From: Candidatus Moanibacter sp.
GTDB lineage: Bacteria > Verrucomicrobiota > Verrucomicrobiia > Opitutales > UBA2987
Direction of reading: 5' to 3'
NCBI GenBank assembly: GCA_965215885.1
Contig: CBDCEW010000100.1
Location: 139,569-203,568 of the forward strand
DNA: 64,000 bases
Made by a program: the position numbers and the translations under genes. Below, one piece after another: positions 3,744 to 23,450 of the stretch. Positions within the stretch are counted from its first letter, which is position 1. The number at the start of each line of letters is the position of its first letter. The notes beneath the pieces are model-generated. The model searched no databases. It saw only the letters and a list, made by a program, of their open reading frames with translations, and had not been told where the DNA came from.

Positions 3744-3893
3744 TTTCAGCGCCTTCGGAAATAAAAGCGCCGAAACAATGGAAACTTCATTATCCAAGTC
3801 AAGCTAAGACCTTCCAGGTTGACTCCCCATCAGGATACGGGGATACCATGTGCGAGGATGTTTAAGAGGTTAATTCCGACAGATTCCTAGGCC

Positions 3894-8494: not shown

Positions 8495-8616
8495 AATCCG
8501 GGATTTCGCAGTACCCTAACGCAGCGTAGCCGCAACCAATCGACAAGGTTCGCGACGAGGTTGGCTCCTCTGGATTCCGCCAAAGTGGACTGTCGGACTC
8601 TAAGTCCGTCAGATTC

Positions 8617-9231
8617 CTAGCCACGGGCGGCGGCGTAGTTTGCCTCAGCCTGCTCCCAGTTGACAACGTTCCAAAAGGCGGCGATGTAATCGGGACGACG
8701 ATTTTGATAGTTCAGGTAATAGGCATGTTCCCAGACATCGAGTCCTATCACTGGACTGCCGGAACCGTCCATGAGTGGGCTATCCTGATTCGGTGTTGAG
8801 GTGACGGCGAGGGAACCATCGGACTTTACGATGAGCCAGGCCCAACCGCTCCCGAATCGAGTGGTGCCGGCAGTGGCAAACGCTTCTTTGAAAGCGTCGA
8901 AGCCCCCTAACTGAGCGTCAATTGCGGAGCCCAGGGATCCGGAGGGCGCGCCGCCGCCGGAACCGAGCACTTTCCAAAAAAATGAGTGATTGGCGTGTCC
9001 TCCGCCATTGTTGCGAACAGCCGTACGGATGCTTTCAGGAACGGCGTCAAGATTGGAGATTAGTTCATTGACGTCCTCAGGGGCATCGTGGTTAGCACCG
9101 GAAAGCGCATTATTGACGTTAGTAATATAGGTGTTGTGATGCTTTGAATGATGAATTTCCATGGTTCGCGCATCGATGTGCGGTTCCAGAGCATCGTAAG
9201 CGTAGTCTAAATTTGGAAGTTCGTATGCCAT
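8617..9231 (-). CDS. sodA: Superoxide dismutase, Mn-type signature
   Basis: [26 protein letters not shown]. Confidence 0.93.
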
Positions 9232-9587
9232 TATTTTATTCCCGGTTTAAGATTAATTGTTGATTCTGATGGAAATTGACTCCCCTGTTTATGAAATGTC
9301 CAAGCTAGGAATCTGTCGGACTAAGTATCAAAAAGGGGATTTCCCCGTCCGTCAACCCCTCCGGCACGAATCAGGCAGGTTTTATTGAGAATTCAATGGA
9401 ATCGAGTACCCGATTAGAGGAACGCGGGAGTGTTTCTACGTATTGGCGGGGTAATTTTGACGGAGAGCACGATTATTAACCACGTCAGCAGATCGAACAG
9501 GTTCCACGTTCATCCATCGTGACCTATCGAGAACGAGGACGACCTGCGAGCGCACGTCCAGCCAACAATAATCGTAGTCCTACCAAC

Positions 9588-14122: not shown

Positions 14123-14181
14123 AGCATTCTCTTTCAAATTAGTGATAATCTCAAATTAGGAATCTGTCGGACTTTTGGCAC

Positions 14182-17913: not shown

Positions 17914-18948
17914 TTAGCCATCGGTTATTGTGCTATTATTATCGATCGCACGGCAGAATAGAGCCCAGTCGATATTTCCGCCCGATAGAATTAACCCCAC
18001 TTTCCTTCCCTGCATCTTGTCTTTTTCTTTCAGGAGGGCAGCGAGGGGACATGAACCCGCACCTTCAGCTATGTTGTGAGTGTCGGTAAAATAGTATCCA
18101 ATAGCGTCTAGAATTTCCTGCTCATTGAGCGTCACAATTCGCGAGACCCCTTTTAGAATACATTCGAATGCTTGTTGATTAGGAATACGTACCGCCACTC
18201 CATCCGCTAATGTATCAGCAGAGGTAGTTTCTCTGAGTTGAACATCCTCAAACGAAAGGGCGTAGGCTGGAGCATTTTCTGAAACAACGCCGACAACTTC
18301 AGTCTTAAGATTCAAGGCATTTCTGGCGGCGATCATACCACATATCCCGGAACCCATACCGATCGGCACATAAACCGTATGCAGATCGGGAACGGTTTTG
18401 AGCAACTCAACGCTATAGGTACTAACTCCTTGAACCAACAGAGGATTAAACGATGGAAACAAATGGTGTCCACGTTCTTCAGCGAGCCTTTGAGCATAGA
18501 TAAGAGCTTCATTAAAGTCCCGTCCGTGTTCAATGAGTTTAGCACCGTAGGCCTGCATGGCTCGGTTTTTCTCGTGACTATTTCCGTGCGGAACCACGAC
18601 AGTTGCTCGTAGCTTATGCCTGCGTGCGGCAAGAGCGACGCTTTGGCCATGATTCCCTCGGGTTGCGGCGATGACTCCATGTATATTTTTATTATTCTTA
18701 ATTAGATTTTCGGTATACCAGACCCCACCTCTGACCTTAAATGCTCCCGTAGGTAAATGATTCTCATGTTTAACCCACACTTCACATCCGCATCTTTTGT
18801 TCAGAAGCGGCCACGAAATCTGAGGAGTTGCACTCAGATATTTGTAGATAACCGATGCCGCTGACTCAATGTCAGCTATTGAGAAATCTAGTCCCGGCAA
18901 GCCGGGATCGGACTTTATGCCTCTTTCGAGAGAGTTATCCAGTTTCAT
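17914..18948 (-). CDS. PLP-dependent threonine/serine dehydratase family protein
   Basis: KHENHLPTGAFKVRGG, ATRGNHG, PIGMGSG, LSGGN. Confidence 0.92.
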   Translation of the reverse strand: MKLDNSLERGIKSDPGLPGLDFSIADIESAASVIYKYLSATPQISWPLLNKRCGCEVWVKHENHLPTGAFKVRGGVWYTENLIKNNKNIHGVIAATRGNHGQSVALAARRHKLRATVVVPHGNSHEKNRAMQAYGAKLIEHGRDFNEALIYAQRLAEERGHHLFPSFNPLLVQGVSTYSVELLKTVPDLHTVYVPIGMGSGICGMIAARNALNLKTEVVGVVSENAPAYALSFEDVQLRETTSADTLADGVAVRIPNQQAFECILKGVSRIVTLNEQEILDAIGYYFTDTHNIAEGAGSCPLAALLKEKDKMQGRKVGLILSGGNIDWALFCRAIDNNSTITDG

Positions 18949-19284
18949 TCCGACAGGCTGCTAGAGACAAGAAAATGAACCTGAGATTTGCGGGAAAGTG
19001 AACGAATTGTTGCAGAGCAGGTTCGCTATGGGCCATTTTGACACGATCAACCCGCGAGCCACAATCTTTCATCATCAGATTCGTATTCGAGGACGGAATA
19101 GATATGTCAATATCTCTCAAATCTCAGTTTCATTTTCTTCCAAGGAATCTGTCGGTCTCATCTGAGTCGGAGTGTCGATCTGTCACCGTGAAATCTACAC
19201 CACGGAGAAGCTAGGAATGCTAAGTCCGACAGAAAACTGAGGTAGTCCGTCAAGGGATTTTTTGAGTTTTTTCTCATGTTGTGT

Positions 19285-20595
19285 TTACAAGGCGTTGGCA
19301 TTTGCTTGCTGAAGTCTTTTCCACACCGGTGAACCGGTGCGTTGGAGCGATTGGAGATACTTTTGCTCATCGTAGCGTTCGCTATTTTGCCAACAGCGAA
19401 ACAGAATGCGGGTCCACTTGAGAGCGAGGGCACGAAGAATGGTTTGGCGGGGTTTGCCCTGTTCTTTTTTGATCTGGTAAAAGGCCTTTGCCCAGGCACA
19501 GTTTCGGATCGAATGTTCGGCAAATTCAACGAAACTTTGCCGCACGAAGGTAGGAGCCGCCCACCGCCAGTTGACCATTCGTTTCGGTTGTCCGGTTCTT
19601 TTGTCCTGCCCGCTGTTGATCGTGACCGGAGCGGATCCATTCCACTGGGTCATGTTCTGGGCCGTTTCGAAGTGCGAACGATCGGTCCCGAACGCGCACA
19701 GCAACCGGGGACTCATGACCTCGCCGGCTCCGGGAATGCCACTGAACACGGCTGCATCGGGATGGCTTCTGAATAGCTCCCTGATACGCTTCTCATACGC
19801 TTTGATCTGCGGGCACAGGGTCAAAAGCTGTCCGGCCAACGTCTGTGCTTTTCTGCTGGATGCTTCAATGATGGCTGCATCTTCGGTCAAGGCTCGTGCG
19901 TTACCGATCAATTCGAGACGCTCCTGGATTTTGGCGTCACTGCGACAGTTGTGCTTATAGAAGAACTTTCGCAAGACACCCTCCGATGCTCTGTGCAGCT
20001 TCTTGAGGGTCGGCCAACGCAATATAAAGTGCAGGCACAGGCCACTGCCTAGATCATCGAACAATTTCAAGACCAAAGGGTTATATTGCTTCAGACAACT
20101 GCCCAACTGCTGTTCGAGGCTGGTAGCCTGATCGACGAATCCACGGCGGTCCTCGCACAACAGGTTCAGCTCCCGTGTTTGGGCCGTGTCAGGTATGAAA
20201 CATTTGGTAAAAAGCTCGGGATGTTTGAGGAAAAACTCCGCGTGTATTTGCGCATCGACCGGGTCGCTCTTGGCCCCTGATGGATACAGCGCCCGGCGAT
20301 AATCCTTCGCCCTGGCCGCATGCACTGGATAGATATCGACAAACTCCAAGCCCATCAGAAAGTTGATCAACCCTCCTCGCTTCTGGTCCACCACCATGGC
20401 CATGCGCTTGCCCACGCTGGCATACTTTTCTCTCATCTCTACGGCAAATTCGTGCAAGCTGACCGCATCCTGCGCCACCTGTCGATGGGTCCCTTTTCCC
20501 GTTTCGCTCTCTATGATCCACAGATCGTTTTTCTGATCCGCCCAATCAATTCCTATCACCACACTATATCGATTTGTTTTTTCCCTTTTCTGCAT
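19285..20595 (-). CDS. IS110-family recombinase/transposase
   Basis: RuvC-like GIDWA, VVDQ and KSDPVDA; C-terminal IPGAG and APVTINSG. Confidence 0.95.
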   Translation of the reverse strand: MQKREKTNRYSVVIGIDWADQKNDLWIIESETGKGTHRQVAQDAVSLHEFAVEMREKYASVGKRMAMVVDQKRGGLINFLMGLEFVDIYPVHAARAKDYRRALYPSGAKSDPVDAQIHAEFFLKHPELFTKCFIPDTAQTRELNLLCEDRRGFVDQATSLEQQLGSCLKQYNPLVLKLFDDLGSGLCLHFILRWPTLKKLHRASEGVLRKFFYKHNCRSDAKIQERLELIGNARALTEDAAIIEASSRKAQTLAGQLLTLCPQIKAYEKRIRELFRSHPDAAVFSGIPGAGEVMSPRLLCAFGTDRSHFETAQNMTQWNGSAPVTINSGQDKRTGQPKRMVNWRWAAPTFVRQSFVEFAEHSIRNCAWAKAFYQIKKEQGKPRQTILRALALKWTRILFRCWQNSERYDEQKYLQSLQRTGSPVWKRLQQANANAL

Positions 20596-20607
20596 CCCTT
20601 TGTTCCT

Positions 20608-22275
20608 TTAGTTTGTCTTTTTGCTTTTTTCAAAGGCACTGGATGTCCAGGCGAAGTCCTTATAGTTGGATCCTGTTATGAGGATGTAAACTGAGTGTTC
20701 GTTTTCGGTCATCCAGGCAGGCCGTCCACTCGAAATTCTGTCGGAAGTCCTCTTCGGACTGATTCCTAAGTTCGTAGTGGACGGCTGCCTTTGAATATTT
20801 TCACCCTTAGCCAAACAAACTCTTTGACCCATCGCCAACCACTGATCGGCCAAGTTATTCACAAAGGGGCCTCGCCGAGTTTTTCCTGCGGCTCCACTCG
20901 GCCCCTTGGATGAATAACCTGGAGCTACTATAAGATTCCTAGCGCGATGAACGTGTCCAGCGTCGTTGCGGTCGAGGGTGAAGGTCTCGAACCAGACTGT
21001 GCCTTTCGGCCGCGAGACTAGATTGATGAGAATCTCTTTTTGCTGAAATCCGCGGATGGCGAAGACAGTGTGTCCGATCTGCAGAGGAGAGGCGGGCCGG
21101 GCTCTCGACGCGTTCCGATCGGCAGGTTTTTGGGGATCCCCGTCGTAGGCGACGACAATTGCCTTTTCCGCATCAAACACCCCGCGGTTTCGCACCCTTG
21201 CTTTCAGAGTCTTGCGAGATCTTCGATTCTTGAAACGGACTGTCGAGGGGAGCAGCTTCACATCGCGGCACAATTGTGAATCCTTGAGAGTTACGGCGCG
21301 GCGGGCGTCGAGGATCCCAAAACCGAGATTCGGTTCCCACCCGTAAGGGTCGTAGACGAGACCGGATACGGGCCGAGTCGTATTGCGGAGAACCTGGCGT
21401 AGTTGTTCATTTTCGAGATGTGGAAAACGCGACCATACAAGCGCCCCGACTCCGCCCGCAAACCCGGACGCCATGCAGCCTCCAGTGAAATTTATGAAAT
21501 TCTGATCGCCTCCGTATCCGCGAATCTGATCGCTGAGGCGTCCCGAGGAGCGTTCTCCGCCCGGCGCCCCGGCTTCGACGTAGTCGCAATCGGGACAGAT
21601 ATCGGCGGGCCAGCCCTTCCGGTTTGTCGAGCCCACAGTGAAGACAGCATCGAATCCGGCTTGAAAGGTCACGACGCGCCGGCCACGGTTGTCCCCGCTG
21701 CTCTTGAAAATGAGGCATCCATGAGCAAAGGCGTAATCCATCGCCTCCCGTAGCCCGGGATTGTCCCATGGGTAGCTGAAATCCGTCCCCTGGTAGAAGA
21801 GGGGGATGCCGTTAGCCCGTTCGCCGCTTATGTAGCCGTGAGGCGTTACAAGGATCTTTGCGCCGTGGTCTACGGCGTATCGGATACCCCGTTCCCAGCT
21901 CTCGGGGTTCCCGTAGCCGACGCGCACCATCATGATGGGGCACTCCGGCGCGAGGTGGGCCACTTCGCCGCCCACAAACCCGTGGTGTCCCCGAAAATAC
22001 TCGCTGCTTTCCTCACGCACGCCCCGGTATTCAAGGCTGGCGTCGTCATCGACGAAATCCCATCCATGCCGTCTGCTTCGCTTGTTCTTCGGGTCGATCC
22101 ACAGATGCGGTTCAAGATCGCTGTGGGTCCGGTAGCCGATATCGATTACAGCTACGATCAGGTTCTTGCTGCCCCGTGTGGTCTCGTGCGCCCTTTGCAC
22201 CCCCAGTTGCCGCAGCGCCCAACCGTAGAGGGCAGGACCGCGACGAGGCGAAGTACCTGAGGAGCGAGGACTCAT
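20608..22275 (-). CDS. S8 (subtilase)-fold protein with atypical active site; 3' end interrupted by IS110 and reading through into it
   Basis: VAVIDIG, GWDFVDDD, HHGFVGG, AVDHGAKI, SSGDN, FTGGCMAS, GFGILDA. Residues after 'RARNL' are encoded by IS110 DNA. Start is uncertain. Confidence 0.75.
   Translation of the reverse strand: MSPRSSGTSPRRGPALYGWALRQLGVQRAHETTRGSKNLIVAVIDIGYRTHSDLEPHLWIDPKNKRSRRHGWDFVDDDASLEYRGVREESSEYFRGHHGFVGGEVAHLAPECPIMMVRVGYGNPESWERGIRYAVDHGAKILVTPHGYISGERANGIPLFYQGTDFSYPWDNPGLREAMDYAFAHGCLIFKSSGDNRGRRVVTFQAGFDAVFTVGSTNRKGWPADICPDCDYVEAGAPGGERSSGRLSDQIRGYGGDQNFINFTGGCMASGFAGGVGALVWSRFPHLENEQLRQVLRNTTRPVSGLVYDPYGWEPNLGFGILDARRAVTLKDSQLCRDVKLLPSTVRFKNRRSRKTLKARVRNRGVFDAEKAIVVAYDGDPQKPADRNASRARPASPLQIGHTVFAIRGFQQKEILINLVSRPKGTVWFETFTLDRNDAGHVHRARNLIVAPGYSSKGPSGAAGKTRRGPFVNNLADQWLAMGQRVCLAKGENIQRQPSTTNLGISPKRTSDRISSGRPAWMTENEHSVYILITGSNYKDFAWTSSAFEKSKKTN
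20641..20922 (-). ncRNA. Bridge RNA of the IS110 element (5' hairpin, target-binding loop, donor-binding loop)
   Basis: 5' stem at 20850-20922. Target loop at 20715-20790 with guides UAGGAAUC and UCCGACAGA. Donor loop at 20641-20714 with guides CUCAGUUU and ACUAUAAG. Confidence 0.85.
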
Positions 22276-22322
22276 ATTCGTTGACGGATTAAATCTTATC
22301 TTCGCATTGATTGGACACGCAA

Positions 22323-23450
22323 CTACGCGGAAACTCTGAAGCGCGAGGCGAGCCACGGTGCGAGGTCCAGCGGGCAATTTCCGGTACGAATCCATTCCGC
22401 GAGGTGAGGCCCCAGGGCGACCGAGTATTTAAACCCTTTGCCGCTCCACCCACAGTCGATGAAGAGATTTTCCAGCCCCTCGACAAAACCCAACAGGGGC
22501 TTCATGTCGGGAGTCTCGTCGTAGCAGGTGGCGTAACCGCCCTGGAATACCCCCCTGCGCATATTCGGCAGGTGATATCGGATCGATTCAGAACACCGGT
22601 CGACCATCCAGTTTGGGCAGGTCGACTCGGTTGGGTCGGGGTCGACAGGTATCCGCGGTTTACGGTCATCGCAAAGAACCCTGATGTTGGAAGCGTGCCA
22701 GGGTACGAAGCCACCGATCCCGTCGACCCATACTACCGGCGGCCGTTCGAAGAACCCTGGGGGTCGACGGTAGAAGGACACCCCCACGCGAACGTTTTCA
22801 ATGGGTAACTGGATGCCCGCCATGGCCGCCACTTTGAGGCTCCACGGACCACAGGCGAGGACCACTTTCCCAGGTGAAATCGAACCGGTGGCGGTATCTA
22901 CGGAGGTAATTTCCCCCTTTTCTACGTGGAAGCGTTCCGCCGGCGAAAACTCCCTTAATTCCGCGCCGTATTCCCGTGCCGCCCGGGCATAAGAGTGCAC
23001 CGTCTGAAAGGCATCGACACAACCCGTTCTGGGAAAGAAAGCCGCCGCTTCGACGCCGTCGGTGTTAAACTCCGGATAGACATCGTGGATCTCTTTTCCC
23101 TCTAAAACTCGAACCGTGGACCCGTTCCGTCTGGCGGCGGCCGCGTACTTCTCTGTGGTGGCCAGATCATTGCGGGCGACGAGCAGGCCATGATTGAAAA
23201 AACCGCAACTTCCTCCGACCTCCTCTTCAAAGTTTTCGTATGCCTCCAAGGCACTGACCGCAAGGCGGCTGATGGTGTCGGTTTCAGCCGCTTGCTGTCC
23301 GCACATCGCTCCTGAGAATGCGGTCGTACCCGAGGCGAGGGCTCTGCGTTCGCAGAGCACGACCTTGCCCTCCTTCCTTCGGGCGAGGTGGTAGGTGATC
23401 GTAATACCCACGATCCCTCCTCCGATAACTAAATAGTCGGTTGATTCCAT
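22323..23450 (-). CDS. FAD-dependent oxidoreductase (DAO/sarcosine oxidase-like)
   Basis: IGGGIVG, GTT, ETPD, GWSGKGFK. Confidence 0.9.
   Translation of the reverse strand: MESTDYLVIGGGIVGITITYHLARRKEGKVVLCERRALASGTTAFSGAMCGQQAAETDTISRLAVSALEAYENFEEEVGGSCGFFNHGLLVARNDLATTEKYAAAARRNGSTVRVLEGKEIHDVYPEFNTDGVEAAAFFPRTGCVDAFQTVHSYARAAREYGAELREFSPAERFHVEKGEITSVDTATGSISPGKVVLACGPWSLKVAAMAGIQLPIENVRVGVSFYRRPPGFFERPPVVWVDGIGGFVPWHASNIRVLCDDRKPRIPVDPDPTESTCPNWMVDRCSESIRYHLPNMRRGVFQGGYATCYDETPDMKPLLGFVEGLENLFIDCGWSGKGFKYSVALGPHLAEWIRTGNCPLDLAPWLASRFRVSA

Follow-up and report, generated by a model that had tools for sequence, protein, structure and literature searches.

Background

Bridge recombinases of the IS110 family are RNA-guided enzymes under development as programmable DNA-insertion tools, and structural work has so far covered a few orthologues near IS621, namely IS621, IS622 and ISCro4 (Protein Data Bank (PDB) 8WT6-8WT9; 9T56). 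In these insertion sequences (IS), the bridge RNA is located in the left end of the element and comprises a 5' stem-loop, a target loop and a donor loop, in that order. Here we describe an IS110-family element in a 64,000-nucleotide stretch of Candidatus Moanibacter sp. (contig CBDCEW010000100.1, positions 139,569 to 203,568), hereafter the window. The element is a recently active jumping gene, and its left end very probably encodes a bridge RNA that directs a 436-aa recombinase to a repeat dispersed through the host genome.

In IS621, the 5' strand of each loop equals the top strand of the matching DNA and the 3' strand is complementary to it, the core is CT, the left halves of target and donor are 7 nt long, and insertion is targeted to a repetitive host palindrome. 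On the 3' side of the core-pairing part of each 3' guide lie the handshake guides, which pair with the opposite DNA at positions 6-7 once strands have been exchanged; pairing of these bases with the cognate DNA locks the complex, and pairing of the target-loop handshake guide with its own target position 7 is inhibitory (PMC11208158). Catalytic residues are D11/E60/D102/D105/S241 (PMC11208158). A promoter across the circle junction has been described for IS110 elements, bridge RNAs of "diverse structures" are predicted in 85.7% of catalogued members, and some orthologues have longer right guides (PMC11208160). Insertion into donor-like sites, via complexes with two donor loops, is known for IS621 and IS622 (10.1101/2025.05.14.653916; 10.64898/2026.08.31.748434). 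Other IS110 elements that target repetitive extragenic palindromes (REPs), including ISPpu9 and ISPpu10 of Pseudomonas putida, occupy one position of a multicopy palindrome (PMC12288879; 10.64898/2026.03.19.712850), and the ISPpu10 abstract states that the hairpin structure of the target matters (PMC12288879 / 10.64898/2026.03.19.712850). The related IS1111 group also has RNA-guided DEDD recombinases with guides for target and donor.

The element described here resembles IS621, IS622 and ISCro4 in the location of its RNA and in the order of the RNA modules. It further shares with IS621 the polarity of the loop strands, the CT core, 7-nt left halves, putative handshake guides, a candidate junction promoter, a repetitive palindromic target and a predicted protein fold. 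One copy occupies a donor-like site, which is comparable to the donor-donor reaction of IS621 and IS622. In contrast to IS621, the second catalytic residue is D rather than E, identity in the fold match is just 16-17%, the right target guide spans 8 bp (CT + 6) instead of 4 bp, the target is 15 bp instead of 11 bp (PMC11208160), an outer stem encloses both loops, and the left end is longer at 337 nt. The protein has 436 aa, compared with 326-341 aa in IS621, IS622 and ISCro4. As with ISPpu9 and ISPpu10, insertion occurs at one position of a multicopy extragenic palindrome, although the host phylum and the repeat are different, the site here being the inverted end of ~100-bp and ~38-bp units. 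The features that set the IS1111 group apart, an RNA 3' of the gene and long sub-terminal inverted repeats (PMC11208160), are both absent.

Results

The element is 1.7 kb long. On the minus strand, its left junction reads GCTAGGAATCT|TATAGTAGCTCC (20941-20921) and its right junction reads CCTCAGTTTTCT|GTCGGACTTAGC (19242-19219). The parts of the element and its flanking target halves are as follows:

19231..20932, minus strand: whole IS110-family element, including the right-hand copy of the CT core (boundaries common to 10 full copies)
20932-20596, minus strand: left end, 337 nt, RNA-bearing
19284-19231, minus strand: right end, 54 nt
19285..20595, minus strand: recombinase gene, 436 aa (Pfam domains, IS621 profile alignment, fold match)
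20933..20934, minus strand: left copy of the CT core (CT at both junctions in 10/10 copies)
19231..19232, minus strand: right copy of the CT core (CT at both junctions in 10/10 copies)
20935..20941, minus strand: left target half TAGGAAT, target positions 1-7 (TAGGAAT in 6, CAGGAAT in 3 of 9 on-target copies)
19225..19230, minus strand: right target half GTCGGA (GTCGGA in 7, GTCGGT in 2 of 9 on-target copies)
19233..19241, minus strand: left donor half CTCAGTTTT at the right end (from the sequence)
20927..20932, minus strand: first left-end bases TATAGT, the right donor half (complementary to the right donor guide)

An earlier reading of the window, made by a model from the sequence alone, had proposed that this left end carries an RNA with the target-loop/donor-loop layout of IS621-type bridge RNAs. 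All sequences and coordinates quoted in that reading are present on the minus strand, and folding bears out the layout. The 340 nt of the left end fold at -123 kcal/mol, compared with -91.9 +/- 5.3 kcal/mol for 100 shuffled sequences (z = -5.9, with none as good), and the fold contains the 5' hairpin and both loop modules as drawn. One part of the drawing has to be revised, in that the AGGC/GCCU pairing, shown there as the lowest part of the target stem, is more likely part of an outer stem over both loops. The predicted RNA comprises the following elements:

20629..20794, minus strand: bridge RNA core, outer stem around the target and donor modules (covariance model R1, 122.4 bits, E 4.3e-28)
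20851..20921, minus strand: 5' stem-loop (present in the minimum free energy (MFE) and centroid folds)
20787..20793, minus strand: 5' strand of the outer closing stem, CAAAGGC (MFE fold; helix 1 of alignment A3)
20631..20637, minus strand: 3' strand of the outer closing stem, GCCUUUG (MFE fold; A3 helix 1)
20790-20715, minus strand: target loop module (sequence, fold)
20761..20768, minus strand: left target guide (LTG) UAGGAAUC, equal to the top strand at target positions 1-8
20746..20760, minus strand: terminal hairpin of the target loop, AGUCC GAAGA GGACU (A3 helix 4)
20738..20745, minus strand: right target guide (RTG) UCCGACAG, complementary to top strand CT-GTCGGA
20736..20737, minus strand: putative target-loop handshake guide AA, complementary to donor positions 6-7 (TT)
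20714-20641, minus strand: donor loop module (sequence, fold)
20686..20695, minus strand: left donor guide (LDG) CUCAGUUU + AC, the first 8 nt equal to the right end
20670..20685, minus strand: terminal hairpin of the donor loop, AUCCU CAUAAC AGGAU (fold; A3 helix 8)
20659..20666, minus strand: right donor guide (RDG) ACUAUAAG, complementary to CT-TATAGT (20934-20927)
20657..20658, minus strand: putative donor-loop handshake guide GA, with G opposite target position 7 (T) as a wobble

The guides match the DNA on both sides of the element. The LTG reproduces the top strand of the left flank and the C of the core (20941-20934), and UCCGACAG(A) at 20745-20737 is the reverse complement of (T)CT-GTCGGA. 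The LDG at 20695-20688 equals the right end (19240-19233 with the preceding C). Because left half, core and right half add up to 7 + CT + 6, the ~15-bp target first proposed is confirmed at 15 bp. A blind search for four ordered, spaced 8-mers (left flank, right-flank complement, right end and left-end complement) returned a single solution at the window locus, with no mismatches and all four guides matching 8/8 in order.

The recombinase has 1588 homologues at E <= 1e-3, most of them 418-440 aa long with 42-48% identity. When one genome per species was scanned, 80 related loci with 35-46% identity were obtained, in Acidobacteriota, Verrucomicrobiota, Cyanobacteria, Myxococcota and others. The blind search found solutions in 13 of these 80 loci and in none of 71 usable reverse-complemented control loci. 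A seed alignment (A2) was then assembled from 12 sequences, consisting of 10 solved relatives, the window element and its sister. Applied to the raw MAFFT alignment, RNAalifold detected the outer stem and the target module and missed the donor module, because the two closest sequences are out of register there; the donor helices were therefore written by hand. The resulting covariance model (R1) has 167 positions and 46 pairs. It gave 77 matches at E <= 0.01 in 82 sources, placing the RNA directly upstream of the gene in 71/80 relatives, and in the element's own genome it gave exactly 10 matches, one per IS copy.

In the alignment of these matches (A3), 90.2% of cells are paired, compared with 70.0% in shuffled controls and 33-43% in controls with partners shifted by 1-3 columns, and both-side changes occur in 41/46 pairs; A3 was fitted to R1, which favours the pairing figures. 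Both-side changes were found in all 7 pairs of the outer stem (helix 1, 92% of cells paired), in 4/5 pairs of the target-loop hairpin and in 6/6 pairs of the donor-loop hairpin. The 5' hairpin is present in most relatives with a different sequence. Given the magnitude of the effect and the outcome of the column-shift controls, there is little doubt that the RNA structure is conserved.

Two groups of relatives depart from this pattern. In three loci from Acidobacteriota (L078:867-958, L033:841-995 and L034:863-927), a second complete target-loop module lies upstream of the normal one, with left guide GCAGAGCC or GCGGAGCC as opposed to GCGTTGCC and a nearly identical right guide. The flanks of L041 and L034 fit the alternative left guide better. 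Judged from these sequences, L033, L034 and L078 may be natural two-target bridge RNAs; a phrase-limited literature search for bridge RNAs with two target loops returned unrelated papers only. The second group (L027, L029, L071, L088, L089 and L095, cyanobacterial and others) has weaker R1 matches, ends that begin TATGGG.. on the left and CTCAGGGC.. on the right, left guides of 9-10 nt and a core that is apparently not CT. These relatives appear to form a sub-branch in which the rules for donor and core differ.

Within the clade, donor guides are nearly constant (CUCAGAUG.. and ACUAUAAG), as are the element ends (..CTCAGATGT-CT and TATAGT..), and target guides vary widely. Of the 71 R1 matches that carried four guides, 37 could be used in a test of guides against flanks, corresponding to 27 distinct guide pairs. 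Cognate combinations matched at 5.00/7 left and 4.85/6 right non-core positions, compared with 2.21 and 1.78, respectively, in 702 non-cognate combinations. The summed score was 271/351 versus 113.7 +/- 12 in permutations, and 0 of 20000 permutations reached 271, a result that is no formal probability since related elements are not independent. Guides thus equal their own flanks even in families with unrelated sequences, which is the covariation between guide loops and insertion sites that the sequence-only reading had predicted among homologues.

A sister genome (G007; same family, other genus) provides a closer comparison, its recombinase being 79% identical (loci L105-L133). Its LTG is UAGGAGGC in 18/18 loci, with left flanks of CTAGGAGTCT in 15, CTAGGAGGCT in 1 and unparsed in 2, and right flanks of GTCGGAC in 17 and GTTGGAC in 1. 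Relative to the window element, guide and target both have G in place of A at position 6, and the stem of the target hairpin is compensated (AGUCC/GGACU to AGUCG/CGACU). Position 7 of the G007 left guide is G, opposite T in 15/16 parsed targets, so a mismatch next to the core seems to be tolerated on the target side. Its donor-loop handshake base is A where the window element has G, and this A pairs with target T7. Homologues were found in 7 other genomes among 401 sampled from the same class (37-42% identical); these include no further close relative, so that G007 is the single genome behind the sub-branch comparison. A metagenome contig scan with a single protein returned one locus, 42% identical, and added nothing.

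The own genome (6.36 Mb in 105 contigs, 90% complete) contains 10 full copies of the element, ~100% identical over 1.7 kb, together with fragments. The copies are spread over 9 contigs, each with different flanks, and the 436-aa frame is open in all of them. In nine of them, the left flank reads [T/C]AGGAATCT and the right flank CT-GTCGG[A/T]. The inner 13 nt of these on-target sites are invariant, and variation is confined to the two outer positions, with T (6 copies) or C (3 copies) at position 1 and A (7 copies) or T (2 copies) at position 15. The target site is AGGAATCT|GTCGG; its 13-mer AGGAATCTGTCGG has 256 genomic occurrences and the full 15-mer has 124. In the window, the rebuilt site TAGGAATCTGTCGGA (<=2 mismatches) occurs 6 times versus 0.13 expected.

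With one mismatch allowed, a 12-mer of the site marks 504 positions in the own genome, arranged mostly as inverted pairs, of which 97 are spaced 60-99 bp (mostly 94 bp) and 17 are spaced 33 bp. This layout identifies the target as the inverted end of a repeat family resembling miniature inverted-repeat transposable elements (MITEs) or REPs, in agreement with the dispersed host repeat claimed from the sequence, into which 9/10 copies have inserted. The family has inverted ends TAGGAATCTGTCGGAC (~504 ends genome-wide) and units of mostly ~100 bp, some being 38-bp perfect palindromes, and the host repeat itself folds as a hairpin. Ends of this repeat in the window are at 3875-3889, 8605-8619, 9306-9320, 14157-14171 and 19142-19156, the last being the partner of the end that holds the element:

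19142..19156, plus strand: other inverted end of the ~100-bp host repeat unit holding the window copy (sequence match)

The tenth copy is located outside the window, on the minus strand of contig C84 (~C84:54652-56355), in unique, coding-looking surroundings. Its rebuilt site, ACCTCAGTTT-aCT-TATgGg, is like the element's own joined ends and unlike the target, and all 10 nt of the LDG fit it. This copy looks like a natural donor-donor insertion involving two donor loops, as known for IS621 and IS622. The natural insertion record of the 10 copies is thus 9 on-target, 1 donor-like and 0 near-cognate. The downstream flank of the C84 copy recurs at a contig start beside a partial copy, which is probably an assembly overlap. 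Two further stretches of the own genome, one short and 77% identical to the part of the left end with the 5' hairpin (C6:7714-7799) and one a ~200-bp piece of the recombinase gene (C99:54428-54638), are remnants of this IS110 element or of a relative.

The atypical junctions define the core. The C84 copy reads ...TTTACT|TATAGT on the left and ...TTTTCT|TATGGG on the right, and the left junction of G007 locus L117 reads GGAGGCT|TATAGT. The base before CT is therefore derived from the target at the left junction (A in C84, G in L117) and from the donor at the right, where T is kept, and the core is CT rather than the TCT of the sequence-only reading. The 9-nt right target guide in that reading must also be shortened. 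The RTG is followed by an A that is conserved in the clade. In 26/29 elements this A pairs with position 7 of the donor, and in 7/29 with position 7 of the element's own target, so that A20737 is probably a handshake guide aimed at the donor, adding no target specificity, and the RTG has 8 nt (CT + 6). The base after the RDG forms Watson-Crick pairs with target position 7 in 23/29 elements, plus 4 G-T pairs, compared with 5 for its own donor; the target pairs include covarying C-G and A-T cases.

The recombinase matches the Pfam domains DEDD_Tnp_IS110 (PF01548, 64.5 bits, cut-off 29) and Transposase_20 (PF02371, 38 bits, cut-off 21.3). Similarity to IS621 is low with phmmer (E ~1e-4) and becomes clear with a clade profile (E 2.4e-15), in which the catalytic columns are aligned. 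The predicted catalytic residues D17, D70, D111, D114 and S328 lie opposite the GID, IEA, KTDTVDA and ESG columns of IS621. An AlphaFold model (mean predicted local distance difference test (pLDDT) score 89.7) finds IS621 (8WT9/8WT6) and ISCro4 as best fold matches, with E 3.5e-12, a target-normalised template modelling (TM) score of 0.60-0.62 and 16-17% identity to IS621, followed by Nop5 and TIGR-Tas proteins. Between its RuvC and Tnp parts, the profile has ~90 positions that stand opposite ~13 IS621 residues and that the model predicts to form a helical bundle. The low identity and phmmer score, together with a score below an NCBIfam cut-off (see Discussion), agree with the assignment of this 436-aa protein to a separate clade, as the sequence-only reading had suggested.

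When the right and left ends are joined, the sequence TTGACG - 17 nt - TATAGT (20932-20927) is formed:

19248..19253, minus strand: TTGACG, -35 hexamer of the putative junction promoter (spaced 17 nt from TATAGT in the joined ends)

A TTGACN hexamer at 16-18 nt occurs in 31/40 distinct junctions of relatives, and the left-end hexamer is TATAGT or near-identical across the clade. A search of the integrated locus for sigma-70-like sites found none. The circle junction would thus rebuild a promoter, as judged from its sequence, and TATAGT is strongly conserved because it would be both the right donor half and the -10 box.

Discussion

We consider it very probable that the element is a functional bridge RNA system. 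The observations behind this are the anatomy of the RNA and element, the matches between guides and DNA, the insertion record in two genomes, the covariation within the RNA and between guides and flanks, and the protein fold. The earlier proposal of an intact IS110-family RNA-guided recombinase programmed against a dispersed host repeat gains its support from guide/site covariation, with the RNA dependence as its presumptive part. Every sequence-level defining feature of an IS110-group bridge system appears to be present, with the RNA in the left end, which would make this the known mechanism, now in a distant branch.

The element is hypothesized to act as follows. It would excise as a circle, in which the joined right and left ends form a sigma-70 promoter whose 17-nt spacer holds the donor site. 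The left end would be transcribed from this promoter as bridge RNA, probably forming the leader of the recombinase mRNA. The RNA would consist of a 5' hairpin and an outer stem closing over two internal-loop modules. The target loop (LTG UAGGAAUC, RTG UCCGACAG) would pair with both strands of the 15-bp TAGGAAT-CT-GTCGGA, and the donor loop (LDG CUCAGUUU, RDG ACUAUAAG) with both strands of the circle junction CTCAGTTTT-CT-TATAGT, while the bases after each 3' guide would engage the opposite DNA as handshake guides. Strand exchange at the CT core would then be carried out by the 436-aa recombinase (D17/D70/D111/D114 + S328) as a tetramer. Transcription, the RNA ends, the circular intermediate and the dependence of recombination on the RNA are the steps that we infer.

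Several observations weigh against this conclusion. The second catalytic residue, D70, is E in IS621 and in 28/32 aligned relatives; D at this residue occurs in four sub-branch members and in many intact copies in two genomes. The protein scores 119.2 bits with NCBIfam NF033542 ("IS110 family RNA-guided transposase"), under the equivalog cut-off of 140, which is a curated naming threshold and not a mechanistic feature; the shortfall marks the clade as divergent. An A of the LDG stands opposite T at donor position 7, next to the core, in 10/10 copies, a position that is mismatch-tolerant in IS621 (PMC11208160). Donor and target of the window element both have T at position 7, so that the target-loop A fits both, the donor-loop G can only wobble, and the handshake logic is blurred. 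A terminator search found none 3' of the donor loop or between RNA and gene. The guide-flank test left out 34/71 matches (guide length not 8/9, end not found or contig too short), and the relatedness of its elements has been noted above.

The RNA data belong with these reservations, consisting of assembled contigs of four metatranscriptome runs (X1-X4) from one study. Between 43% and 83% of the element's sampled words are present in these runs, and the contigs cover the gene and left end, with separate contigs over 20635-20940. In 3/4 runs, the separate RNA-region contig ends at 20635-20646 and its word depth is above that of the neighbouring gene contigs. Such contigs carry no strand, ends or level, and DNA carry-over is possible, so they are no evidence of a discrete RNA; the missing contig cover at 20948-21050 carries no meaning. 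The joint of the circle junction was found neither in the contigs of X1-X4 nor in the genome assembly (0 matches).

An alternative is that the left end is merely a structured 5' mRNA leader for control of translation or stability, that the protein alone picks the site, and that the guide-like matches come from a captured degenerate palindromic host repeat and from sub-terminal repeats of the element's own ends. Read as DNA, the target loop (TAGGAATCAGTCCGA, 20768-20754) does resemble the host repeat with 2 mismatches, the repeat itself is a hairpin, and RNA and gene have no terminator between them. Such a leader does not account for loops whose two strands match their own flanks in 27 guide families with unrelated targets, for stems that covary while loop lengths stay constant, or for handshake positions that follow the opposite DNA, and the same layout is experimentally proven for IS621 (PMC11208160). 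We regard the leader explanation as extremely unlikely; a capture of the host hairpin as the origin of the target loop is a speculation. An IS1111-type element with a seekRNA would share the superfamily and the Pfam domains. Its RNA would be expected in a long right end with long sub-terminal inverted repeats (PMC11208160), whereas here the 337-nt left end, 5' of the gene, contains the RNA, the right end measures just 54 nt and the donor guides sit in a simple internal loop, which makes this assignment barely conceivable.

It is also very unlikely that the bridge RNA is genuine and the element no longer mobile here, the 10 copies then being a past burst or partly assembly duplication. The replacement of the catalytic E by D, the repeated C84 downstream flank, which looks like an assembly overlap, and the missing circle junction in assembly and metatranscriptome contigs would fit a loss of mobility. 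Ten ~100% identical copies with 10 different flanks on 9 contigs, open 436-aa frames in all copies and the same D variant in at least 18 intact G007 copies argue for mobility, and circles are rare and would not be assembled.

A broader reading, which we put forward tentatively as possible and on balance doubtful, is that the ~430-aa clade forms a structurally distinct, experimentally untouched bridge class, with an outer stem making one three-way unit, a 15-bp target with an 8-bp right guide, a ~80-aa extra helical module between the RuvC and Tnp parts and, in the sub-branch of the window element, a D-D-D-D catalytic set. The 9/10 on-target record would then reflect an intrinsically higher fidelity than that of IS621, a possibility raised in the sequence-only reading, and the relatives with two target loops would encode multi-target RNAs. 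Relatives of the element may already be listed in the supplementary tables of PMC11208160, and the preprint 10.1101/2024.06.21.599552 offers nothing that bears on the ~430-aa clade.

The finding leaves the known mechanism of IS110 bridge systems unchanged. It adds a distant orthologue whose guide lengths, CT core, handshake positions and putative junction promoter can be read from natural data, and which is for this reason a reasonable candidate for bench work. Ten natural insertion events, including one apparent donor-donor event, are available as a record, and the element is a useful data point on IS110 elements that live on abundant host repeats.

Neighbouring features

A scan of 18800-21400 against Rfam 15 (E <= 1) returned no match to a bridge-RNA family. 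The one hit, to MIR2275, lies at 18972-19136 within the palindromic host repeat and, at 23 bits and E 0.36, is regarded as a chance match. An open reading frame (ORF) with a Peptidase_S8 (subtilase) domain (20608-22395, minus strand) crosses the end of the host repeat and then extends 325 nt into the IS left end, such that the insertion has replaced the last codons of the annotated frame. Without the IS, this frame would still have extended into the repeat unit.

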